A program made the translations under genes and the position numbers. The notes below the pieces were generated by a model, which was not told where the DNA came from, ran no database searches, and saw nothing but the letters and a program-made list of their open reading frames with translations. From Actinomycetota bacterium (GTDB lineage: Bacteria > Actinomycetota > Acidimicrobiia > IMCC26256 > VFJJ01), in NCBI GenBank assembly GCA_009886115.1, contig VFJJ01000115.1, forward strand, positions 1 through 38,136: a stretch of 38,136 nt of DNA. Reading direction: 5' to 3'. Each line of letters starts with the position of its first letter. Position 1 is the first letter of the stretch. Below, one piece after another: positions 4,082-5,607 of this stretch.

Positions 4082-4702
4082 TCACGCGCCAGGGGTGAAC
4101 TCGACCAGCCCCAGGACGCCCTCGCCGCCAGCCACCTTCTCCTCGCCGACGAGCCCGACGCCCGGTGCGTCGTACTTGTGCTCGATGGTGTCGGGCTCCA
4201 GCGGACTCCAGTCCTCGGTCTCCACCACGGCATCGAAGACGCCTGCGGGAACGGTCCTCGACTCGGTGACGCTCAGGATCTCGAACATGTCCTCGGCCTT
4301 GCCCTCGTAGTACTCCTGGCGGAATGCCGCACCAGCGCTCGGTTGGGCGGGCATCACGATCCCCGGCACCGCGCCGTCGACAGTCGAGATCCCCATCACC
4401 AGCTTGCGCTCCTCGAGCACGGTGACCTCGACGCGCTCGGTCTCGCCGTCGCTCTCACCGACGAGCACCCAACGGGACCCGGGTAGGAACGGCAGGTACG
4501 GGTTGTCGATGCGATCGACGAAGTTGGCCGGGTCGATGACGGGGGCGTAGACGCCGCCGTCGCCCGGATCGACGACGGGAGCTGCGTCTTGCGTGGACGA
4601 CGTCGAGTCGTCGTCGCCGCAACTCGTGAGCCCGGCAGCAGCGCCGATCGCGGCGAGTGTCACGAGCATGATCCGGGCGGAGAGGTTCGCTCTCGTTGAC
4701 AT
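4082..4702 (-). CDS. Uncharacterised lipoprotein, apparently with an in-frame internal deletion (possible pseudogene)
   Basis: AAGGAG SD before ATG 4702; lipobox LTSC; IDPANFVDRIDNPY, RQEYY..AED, PLEP..EHKY.APGVG motifs. Confidence 0.7.
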   Translation of the reverse strand: MSTRANLSARIMLVTLAAIGAAAGLTSCGDDDSTSSTQDAAPVVDPGDGGVYAPVIDPANFVDRIDNPYLPFLPGSRWVLVGESDGETERVEVTVLEERKLVMGISTVDGAVPGIVMPAQPSAGAAFRQEYYEGKAEDMFEILSVTESRTVPAGVFDAVVETEDWSPLEPDTIEHKYDAPGVGLVGEEKVAGGEGVLGLVEFTPGA

Positions 4703-4775
4703 GGCTGCTCCTTGGCGCAGGGTGAACGCCGGTGCCCGTGTGGTGGGTGTGATACCGGGTCGATGGTGCGCCGTA

Positions 4776-4797
4776 GCGCCTGAACGGCGCCTGAACG
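4776..4797. promoter_or_regulatory. Perfect 11-bp tandem direct repeat (GTTCA-N6-GTTCA on minus), OmpR/PhoB-family box-like
   Basis: GCGCCTGAACG x2 in the divergent intergenic region between lipoprotein and arsC. Confidence 0.45.
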
Positions 4798-4849
4798 TGT
4801 GCCGGACGGGGGTCGGATCGGCGGGGCTGGCCGGATAGTGTCTGCGACC

Positions 4850-5221
4850 ATGACGAGCACGAGCGGGTCGACACCGGAGCTGATCGTCTTCCACAACCCC
4901 GGCTGAGGTCAGTCGCGGGGTGTGGTCGACATCCTGAAAGAGCGGGGCATCGAGTTCGGTGTGGTCCAGTACCTGAAGGACGTCCCCGGACGTGAGGTCT
5001 ACGAGCGCATGCTCGATCTGCTGGCTGACCCGCCGGCCGATCTCGTCCGCAAGGACAAGCGCTTCGCTGAGCTGGGCCTGATCGCCGACGATTACACGAC
5101 CCGAGAGTCGGTCGTCGAGCTCCTGCTCGTCCACCCTGAGCTGATGCAGCGTCCCGTCATCTTCCGCGGCGACCGTGCTGTGCTGGCCCGTCCCTCCGAG
5201 AAGGTGCTCGAGCTGTTTTGA
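4850..5221 (+). CDS. arsC: Arsenate reductase, glutaredoxin-type ArsC family; candidate selenoprotein (Sec at TGA 4904-4906)
   Basis: Read-through gives MTSTSGSTPELIVFHNPG-U-GQSRGVVDIL, matching the ArsC HNPxCxxSR active site; also DLVR, HPELMQRPV, ARPSEKV; 123 aa; TAGTGT -10-like element 8 nt before ATG. Confidence 0.85.
4916..4936 (+). promoter_or_regulatory. Candidate bacterial SECIS hairpin of arsC
   Basis: CGGGGUGU-GGUCG-ACAUCCUG, 8-bp stem with two G-U pairs; loop starts with G after a 17-nt spacer from UGA. Confidence 0.7.
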
Positions 5222-5262
5222 TGTGACCCTCGGCGCTCGGGCCCGGCGTGGCCCGCCGTCGC

Positions 5263-5607
5263 TCAGCTGGGCTCGTCAGTTGCGGGACGGGGTCGTAGGT
5301 CGTCGTCGGGGAGGCAGGGCAGCCCCTCGACGTACGTGGCGAGCTCGGCCATGACGCGGGCGGAGCGGGTGTCGAAGATGGTGGCGCGCATCTCGCTGAA
5401 GGTTCCGTCGACGATGGCCGTGCGGCTGGCGTCGAGCTGCCCGCGGAGATACTCCCAGTCGTCCCGCAAAGCCACGGGGACGTTCGAGATGCTCCGCTCG
5501 AGCACCCGATCCGCGAGTGTCAGCGCATCGGCCTGAGCTTCGACGAGCTCGCCGGGGTCCGCCATCTGCTCGAGCGACCCTGTCCCGTCGAAGGCTCCGA
5601 GGGCCAC
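5263..5607 (-). CDS. Hypothetical helical protein (start uncertain, possibly 5'-truncated)
   Basis: Coding-like acidic/helical 3' part of ORF 5263..5898; the upstream part of that ORF is antisense to the NifU-like gene and looks non-coding. Confidence 0.4.
   Translation of the reverse strand: MALGAFDGTGSLEQMADPGELVEAQADALTLADRVLERSISNVPVALRDDWEYLRGQLDASRTAIVDGTFSEMRATIFDTRSARVMAELATYVEGLPCLPDDDLRPRPATDEPS

Follow-up and report, generated by a model that had tools for sequence, protein, structure and literature searches.

The gene at positions 4850 to 5221 of the window (the whole stretch of 38,136 nucleotides of actinomycetotal DNA analysed here) is almost certainly a selenoprotein gene of a known family, in which the host's SelB and tRNA-Sec would read the UGA at codon 19 as selenocysteine (Sec). 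The account that best explains it overall, and in which we place considerable confidence, is of a stand-alone Sec-containing ArsC with a probably leaderless start and a catalytic adduct resolved by mycothiol, which would use a SECIS close to the UGA while its relatives would reach a more distant one across a folded spacer. We further propose, with confidence a little better than even, that SelB reads a far SECIS past a looped-out spacer, that such a spacer can itself turn into a SECIS, and that this gene is an intermediate caught in the change, which would have taken place in two or three lineages besides a marine-looking group that has the proximal element only. The features on which these readings draw are collected in Table 1.

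Table 1. Features of the Sec-ArsC gene on the window, and further in-frame TGA candidates by contig of the host genome (G000)
Feature	Position	Strand	Evidence or remark
TANNNT (-10-like) hexamer TAGTGT, probable leaderless promoter, 8 nt 5′ of the ATG	4836–4841	+	Sequence; putative promoter function
Full CDS, 123-aa thioredoxin-fold ArsC-family selenoprotein	4850–5221	+	Translation, Pfam ArsC, AlphaFold2, Foldseek
In-frame UGA, very probable selenocysteine U19, in the column of R773 ArsC Cys12	4904–4906	+	Alignment, TGA/Cys pairs, Sec machinery
Proximal hairpin, 8 bp, loop GGUCG (4924–4928), 17 nt after the UGA	4916–4936	+	-9.8 kcal/mol; fits the SECIS model
99-aa truncated ORF without the active site, as called by gene callers	4922–5221	+	ORF list, P0002
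Distal hairpin, loop AGUU (4953–4956), 46 nt after the UGA	4947–4962	+	Family-conserved, Sec-specific; weakened here
Arg67, equivalent to Arg60 of R773 ArsC	5048–5050	+	Alignment; conservation of 90% or more across 87 relatives
Arg101, equivalent to Arg94 of R773 ArsC	5150–5152	+	Alignment; invariant in 87 relatives
Arg114, equivalent to Arg107 of R773 ArsC	5189–5191	+	Alignment; invariant in 87 relatives
In-frame TGA candidates elsewhere in G000	C125:8971-, C168:6054-, C196:1657-, C23:40543-, C122:2873+, C44:45394+, C149:3139-
In-frame TGA candidates elsewhere in G000 (continued)	C179:4216+, C101:28863-, C92:1041-, C27:31739+, C178:38232-, C94:12176+

An earlier note on this DNA held that the called reading frame lacks the ArsC active site and that an ATG further upstream in the same frame, behind a -10-like TAGTGT, restores it as IVFHNPG-TGA-GQSR. 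The ORF list and the sequence bear this out. Translation from the ATG at 4850 crosses the TGA at 4904–4906 and runs to the stop codon at 5219–5221, and the read-through product of 123 residues contains U19 and, as the note also stated, no Cys. Database entry P0002 of the protein collection is exactly the 99-aa fragment, and truncated fragments without the active site account for 84 of the 120 best database matches. A sequencing error had been named as something that would undo this reading; contigs from all 4 runs, which belong to four studies besides the likely source, cover the three positions of the TGA and carry no other letter. The gene is the sole PF03960 member of the genome.

In 36 of 41 loci from the host's order a TANNNT hexamer lies 5–8 nt 5′ of the start codon, and this recurrence points to a gene start that is probably leaderless. 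A scan for two-box sigma-70 promoters gave no match near the gene, as expected for a leaderless start, and a terminator scan gave none there either. An RNA-library contig spans 4860–5235; since a DNA run yields a similarly short contig and DNA carry-over is possible, we do not count it as evidence of expression. Directly 3′ of the stop codon, positions 5222–5260 form a GC-rich inverted-repeat region that varies by indels between strains and lacks the U-tail of a terminator. On the other side, a divergent 206-aa ORF (4082–4702, minus strand) has a hydrophobic start and a lipobox-like Cys, and no Pfam or NCBIfam family matches it.

The Sec machinery, whose four genes the note proposed to look for, is complete in the host genome (95.6% complete). 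Profile searches place selA, selB and selD above curated cut-offs, one tRNA-Sec (selC) scores 66 bits, over the Rfam cut-off, and ARAGORN reports a single tRNA with a UCA anticodon in the genome. This tRNA carries G rather than U before CCA, and we take that discriminator base as a sign of tRNA-Sec identity. Its predicted fold (L011:1501–1593) departs from a clean 8/5 arrangement: the eighth acceptor position is an A-C mismatch, and the T stem has 6 bp. The SelD of the host (L010, G000:C57) has Cys, rather than Sec, in its active-site motif.

SECIS-dependent recoding by non-canonical tRNAs is known, which gives some precedent for the alternative that the UGA is decoded here as Cys or Trp, by a non-canonical tRNA acting with SelB or through an altered code. 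Codon variants are also mentioned in the accessible text of PMC10778597. We nevertheless regard such decoding as highly improbable in this host, given that the only UCA tRNA scores over the tRNA-Sec cut-off and has the discriminator G, that selA and selD are both present, and that TGA terminates most genes.

The TGA aligns with Cys12 of R773 ArsC, and at this column the genome loci comprise 18 distinct TGA genes and 53 TGC/TGT genes (four duplicates, one frameshifted locus and one cut locus left out). A metagenome scan restricted to the pattern [YF]-H-N-P-x-TGA-x-x-S-R returned at least 117 matches; among the matches listed are 62 ArsC homologues, 58 of them distinct. Genome loci and the metagenome matches listed together give at least 76 distinct genes with TGA at the catalytic column. 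The Cys/TGA pairs that the note proposed to search for are thus found, with at least 58 TGA genes from metagenomes, and relatives not only keep the TGA but share a conserved, Sec-specific hairpin, described below. Sec is flanked by two glycines in 18 of 18 Sec genes from genomes, and 0 of 53 Cys genes have glycine before Cys; in the metagenome Sec genes among the matches listed, glycine precedes Sec in 42 of 58 and follows it in 45 of 58.

The gene is present in 134 of 154 genomes of the host's order. TGA occurs in 10 of the 97 gene-bearing genomes with selA and in 0 of the 37 without it (Fisher P = 0.034, in a set where kin are dependent observations), so that all 10 TGA-bearing genomes of the order have selA; these tallies include G080 and G152, which are flagged as unpublished and both lack the TGA. 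Genome G001 has a homologue with the same TGA and 89% protein identity to this gene. In a quick protein tree over 115 columns, the Sec label needs 7 changes, only 2 of which are forced by starred branches, and since trees of 115 columns resolve poorly we claim no number of Sec gains. L094 (in G107) is an ArsC gene with a TGT codon, Sec-type residues and a perfect distal hairpin, placed inside a Sec branch, and is probably a recent Sec-to-Cys reversion. L156 and L173 carry the TGA in ArsC-like genes of a distant type (HNPR); both lack the two hairpins, and they may be pseudogenes or bear a third type of signal.

A pseudogene or sequencing error, with a Cys codon turned into a stop, would require one base change from TGC or TGT, in a genome where TGA is the commonest stop codon (1506 of 1833 long ORFs), and 3 of 72 TGA relatives do have neither hairpin. 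This explanation is also very improbable. The identical TGA recurs in four other studies and in G001, the frame stays open to its usual end, and neither a catalytic column with TGA in so many genes, nor RNA covariation specific to the Sec forms, nor selA in every TGA genome of the order is what such a lesion predicts. The sel genes, the Cys/TGA pairs, the reads, the co-occurrence with selA and the 99-aa database entry all agree with the central claim of the earlier note, that this is an intact Sec-ArsC which pipelines truncate. Its novelty had been overrated: the family of Sec "arsenate reductases" with a UxxS motif was published in 2005 (PMC1088965, accessible text), and the protein finding alone amounts to an annotation correction for truncated database fragments.

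On its sequence, the gene is a member of this UxxS family (COG1393, pfam03960, TIGR00014), with the U-x-x-S motif as U19-G-Q-S22. Pfam ArsC (PF03960) scores 42.6 bits against a cut-off of 24, TIGR00014 scores 86.5 and thus falls below its cut-off of 106.05, and TIGR01617 (Spx/MgsR) reaches 40 of the 75.05 bits it requires; the site is UxxS where those regulators have CxxC, and a second Cys is absent. The AlphaFold2 model has a pLDDT of 96.6 over residues 9–123, and Foldseek aligns it with 3f0i, 1i9d and 3rdw at TM 0.87–0.89. By sequence and by predicted fold, ArsC structures rank above Spx and YffB; profile scores give no separation of R773 ArsC from the "putative" reductases 3rdw and 3f0i.

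The earlier note had also described a stem-loop after the TGA. One is present, but there are two hairpins in all, and the one that is conserved in the family is the second, distant one, which the note had missed. The proximal hairpin lies within all four bacterial SECIS rules in our own implementation of the published model (a loop of 3–9 nt starting with G(G/U), a stem of 4–16 bp, a spacing of 16–37 nt and an energy of -7.5 kcal/mol or lower). It is common to this gene and the G001 homologue, whose six stem-and-loop codons are identical (two DNA sequences of the clade), and 54% of cells in its register are paired across the Sec relatives, which means no family-wide conservation. As background, 414 of 7655 in-frame Cys codons (5.4%) are followed by a stretch that the model accepts, and a hairpin of this kind arises in 139 of 2000 synonymous recodings of the stretch. 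An Rfam scan of 4600–5500 gave no match, even at E 5. Single-sequence folding is unremarkable throughout (z from +0.62 to -1.46, the latter for 4915–4965), so the hairpin signal becomes visible only when relatives are compared.

Among the genome loci, the core motif of the distal hairpin is present in 18 of 18 Sec genes versus 1 of 53 Cys genes, and the metagenome genes among the matches listed have it in 39 of the 54 that are long enough to test (four are too short). For the combined set of 72 Sec genes, drawn from the genome loci and the metagenome matches listed, the hairpin is intact in 55, compared with 1 of 53 Cys relatives, that one being L094. The cut-off for "intact", -7.0 kcal/mol, was chosen after seeing the data, and the hairpin of this gene falls short of it, with 6 pairs, two of them G-U, and -5.3 kcal/mol (z -2.7 versus synonymous recodings). 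At 46 nt the loop lies outside the 16–37 nt of the published model; it follows the G-U rule, and most relatives also lie within the stem and energy rules. In an alignment of 58 distinct Sec rows picked for carrying the distal element, 97.3% of stem cells are paired, 30 cells have a compensatory change and 0 of 500 shuffles match this; in the unselected 18 Sec genes, 96.8% of cells are paired. Given the amino acids, 1639 of 2000 synonymous recodings carry the motif, which thus follows largely from codon bias, and the evidence therefore lies in the Glu-Phe that is fixed in the Sec forms and in coupled changes of the two stem sides, each of which replaces an amino acid. One Sec-ArsC (L176:416–481) has the distal loop CGUG in place of AGUU with the stem intact, so that the two outer loop bases change together while the G-U between them stays.

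Predicted folds point to a way in which most relatives could use a hairpin 46 nt downstream, namely by a folded spacer that brings it near. Of the 51 genes with the distal hairpin alone, 49 have a tight spacer hairpin. The share is 28 of 53 among the Cys genes and about 41% among synonymous recodings, and at three control offsets within these Sec genes it is 2–8 of 49–50. Mean spacer stability relative to recodings is z -2.13 in the distal-only Sec genes and -0.51 in the Cys genes, a difference whose P value is inflated by relatedness. Over the 51 genes, the spacer hairpin starts a median of 10 nt after the UGA, and the median gap between its end and the distal stem is 0 nt. With the spacer looped out, the predicted effective spacing from UGA to loop has a median of 17 nt and a range of 15–24, in which 15 nt is a floor, since the first 8 nt after the UGA were held unpaired. 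No consensus fold and no shared register emerged across the 51 genes, and a spacer of fixed register was rejected for that reason; stability and position alone are conserved. Against the spacer model stands the ease with which GC-rich stretches fold, as the 28 of 53 Cys genes that pass illustrate.

The proposal combines these folds with the geometry of mRNA entry into the ribosome. A stretch of about 30 nt would fold into a spacer hairpin that abuts the distal hairpin, giving a canonical effective distance of about 17 nt in most relatives. The ribosome would leave this spacer folded beyond the mRNA entry channel, and SelB would then read the far SECIS. In open-access running text our search met no usable account of a bacterial SECIS that is distant or bridged by a spacer, and the accessible text of PMC10778597, PMC8659212, PMC13449736 and PMC12013277 contains none.

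A comparable layout is predicted in a second gene. The Sec-containing Bcp/PrxQ peroxiredoxin (G000:C19:8357, L227, L231; L232 in G001) has its loop at +83 after the UGA, with 10 free nt, a 64-nt spacer hairpin and an abutting 8-bp hairpin in both TGA genomes. Its spacer exceeds that of 28 of 28 Cys relatives in stability, as does its hairpin; the layout is equalled by 3 of 300 synonymous recodings. Under the proposal, looping-out would restore an effective distance of about 17–18 nt across ArsC and this peroxiredoxin. The same spacer test is borderline in a DsbA-like candidate (7 of 300 recodings as good) and non-significant in a UGSC-like one (38 of 300).

The host genome holds at least 13 further in-frame TGA candidates (Table 1), most with a G-U loop 18–25 nt after the UGA. 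Like the Bcp gene, which alone was checked against family libraries, they come from a self-BLAST filter followed by selection by eye; judged by eye, they presumably include TlpA-, DsbA-, AhpD-, UGSC-, SelL- and MerB-like proteins. The DsbA-like and one UGSC-like candidate have distant hairpin candidates alone, at +66 and +62, respectively. A codon-score readthrough scan of the genome was set aside because its 147 candidates were mostly false.

The distal and proximal elements are nearly exclusive. Among the 72 Sec genes, 51 have the distal hairpin only, 4 both, 14 the proximal only and 3 neither; one or the other is thus present in 69 of 72 Sec genes versus 1 of 53 Cys genes, 52 of which have neither. 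One group, which includes low-GC members, looks marine and has a canonical loop at +23, accounts for 11 of the 17 genes that lack an intact distal hairpin. Without this group the counts become 51, 4, 4 and 2, with an overstated P of 0.002. The four remaining proximal-only genes are this gene, the G001 homologue, L151 and L168, and by their placement on a weak tree would represent two or three lineages.

In a tree built on the region after the motif, this gene falls in a clade of 16 protein sequences (support 0.78) in which Val-Asp-Ile-Leu, from the region of the proximal stem, is preserved. Glu-Phe, specified by the distal loop codons, is kept in 3 of 15 truncated clade members versus 69 of 69 other truncated matches; TGA in the clade is read from protein truncation, and DNA is available for two members. 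A search for DNA of the clade returned only G001 from the genomes of the order and class, and 0 viral contigs. In G001, the distal stem is broken after 3 pairs. The loss of the distal loop residues in this clade suggests a hand-over to the proximal signal, in which the spacer region would gain a G-U or G-G loop and become a canonical SECIS, and the distal hairpin would then decay. The proximal hairpin probably derives from the spacer, and the Glu-Phe of this gene could be a re-gain instead of a relic.

Because the clade has mostly lost Glu-Phe and kept Val-Asp-Ile-Leu, and because most other Sec candidates of the host have their loops at 18–25 nt, we lean towards the proximal hairpin as the SECIS at work in this gene. 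That both hairpins work in this gene seems rather unlikely. We also judge it unlikely that the distal hairpin is still the sole working SECIS and the proximal one a shortened spacer with a G-rich loop by chance. The distal core is intact in sequence (loop AGUU, 6 pairs) and unusual against recodings, no other element has family-wide covariation, a canonical-looking proximal hairpin has a background of 5–7%, and a hand count puts the effective spacing with the proximal stem folded at about 25 nt, within 16–37; however, the stem is among the weakest that keep the loop, at -5.3 kcal/mol versus -7.0 or lower in 55 genes, and an AGUU loop is incompatible with the protein sequence of 12 of the 15 truncated clade members. 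Carrying both hairpins, the gene is a natural test object.

The earlier note was right that the gene has no ars operon neighbours: Pfam detects no ars family among the 42 ORFs of the window, and the 49 ORFs that adjoin the gene at 14 Sec loci include none either. Within the order, the next gene downstream encodes an acyl-CoA dehydrogenase at 7 of 9 Sec loci that could be tested and at 22 of 30 Cys loci, from which we conclude that both forms sit at one and the same locus; this neighbour is absent in the host genome and G001. Several non-actinobacterial loci adjoin rpmB-mutL-miaA. Elsewhere, the host genome has a separate ars cassette consisting of an ArsR-LMWPc fusion, an MIP/aquaglyceroporin-like channel and an LMW-PTP ArsC, all under NCBIfam cut-offs. 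The cassette is split between the end of contig C2 (L262:200–1584) and the start of C173 (L263:1–590), which overlap by 109 nt. Neither acr3 nor arsB has a match in the genome, so the MIP channel may be the exit for arsenite; ArsM scores below its cut-off.

For the reductant, the note had raised mycothiol and mycoredoxin as a possibility. Mycothiol fits the genome, whereas neither a mycoredoxin nor a glutaredoxin (PF00462, TIGR02200) was found in it at 95.6% completeness, nor was glutathione synthetase (TIGR01380). MshD is above its cut-off (200 against 163 bits), and MshA-like (432/463), MshC-like (415/485) and mycothione reductase (Mtr)-like (558/636 bits) genes are just under theirs. Taken together with the missing alternatives, these genes make mycothiol the likely reductant. 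A mycothiol S-transferase/DinB-family gene in the window (PF04978; 11187–12104, minus strand) also fits mycothiol use.

In R773 ArsC, the nucleophile attacks an oxyanion held by arginines, and an external thiol resolves the adduct. By analogy, the U19 selenolate would attack an oxyanion held by Arg67, Arg101 and Arg114. Mycothiol would clear the adduct, directly or through another thioredoxin-fold protein, in an enzyme that lacks a resolving Cys, and arsenite would leave through the separately encoded MIP channel. On this analogy it is fairly probable that the enzyme can reduce arsenate; that arsenate reduction is its main cellular job we hold only tentatively. The chance is just short of even, in our judgement, that this real selenoprotein is instead an ArsC/YfgD-like monoselenol oxidoreductase with a housekeeping role, whose target would be another oxyanion or mycothiol mixed disulfides, and not an arsenate detoxifier. 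The near-universal presence of the gene in the order (134 of 154), its neighbourhoods of acyl-CoA dehydrogenase or rpmB-mutL-miaA without ars families, the separate ArsR-LMWPc, MIP and LMW-PTP ArsC cassette, and profile scores that cannot tell R773 ArsC from 3rdw and 3f0i all favour such a role, while the complete set of Cys12, Arg60, Arg94 and Arg107 equivalents, in which two arginines do not vary across 87 relatives, and the precedence of ArsC structures over Spx and YffB by sequence and fold argue for the arsenate reductase. Our literature search found no enzyme assay of a Sec-ArsC and no usable description of YfgD/YffB function.

Among known systems, the closest is the published Sec family itself, which also appears as the "ArsC 1" selenoprotein family in the accessible text of PMC2398784 and PMC13188914, with a mention in PMC13326102. 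In the accessible parts of these sources, Sec-ArsC is predicted from TGA/Cys pairs in 14 Sargasso and 77 GOS sequences (PMC1088965, PMC2398784, PMC13188914), its SECIS is described as immediately downstream of the UGA (same three sources), and its function is called largely uncharacterised (2026 review, PMC13188914). The present gene shares with this family the fold and the U-x-x-S at the catalytic Cys, and differs as a member from a freshwater-sediment Actinomycetota with a Gly-Sec-Gly site.

The enzyme resembles E. coli R773/chromosomal ArsC (1I9D, 1JZW) in its modelled fold (TM 0.87, rmsd 2.0 Å), in the HNPx(C/U)xxSR loop, in the Arg60, Arg94 and Arg107 equivalents and in having a single catalytic chalcogen residue. 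It differs in the replacement of Cys by Sec, in an identity of only about 30%, in the absence of the C-terminal extension and of an ars operon, in a host where glutathione synthetase and glutaredoxin were not detected, and in a TIGR00014 score under the cut-off. By analogy, it would work like R773 ArsC, yet its score, its reductant and its gene context place it outside that equivalog. The stand-alone ArsC-like proteins 3F0I and 3RDW are the best or near-best fold and profile matches, are of similar length and have a loop, HNPxCSKSR, that resembles the Cys relatives; they differ in containing Cys, in an identity below 30% and in a function that is itself putative. The ArsC1 and ArsC2 enzymes of actinobacteria have an LMW-PTP fold. 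In the accessible text of PMC10950700 they are coupled to mycothiol and mycoredoxin, and with one catalytic residue recycled via mycothiol they are the closest precedent for the reductant; they require Mrx1, which was not found in the host genome.

With respect to the recoding signal, the bacterial SECIS model has a spacing of 16–37 nt, and reviews note that a subset of elements fails it, in a form left undescribed (PMC13188914 among them, accessible text); in one test bSECISearch missed 13% of known selenoprotein genes (PMC12013277, accessible text). If our proposal is true, a looped-out spacer would give a simple, testable rule for SECIS elements that fail the consensus and would widen search models. 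Engineered selenoproteins would then no longer need a SECIS within the few codons right after Sec. Compared with the canonical model, then, the family-conserved hairpin of the Sec-ArsC genes stands 46 nt away, outside the model and behind a spacer predicted to fold.
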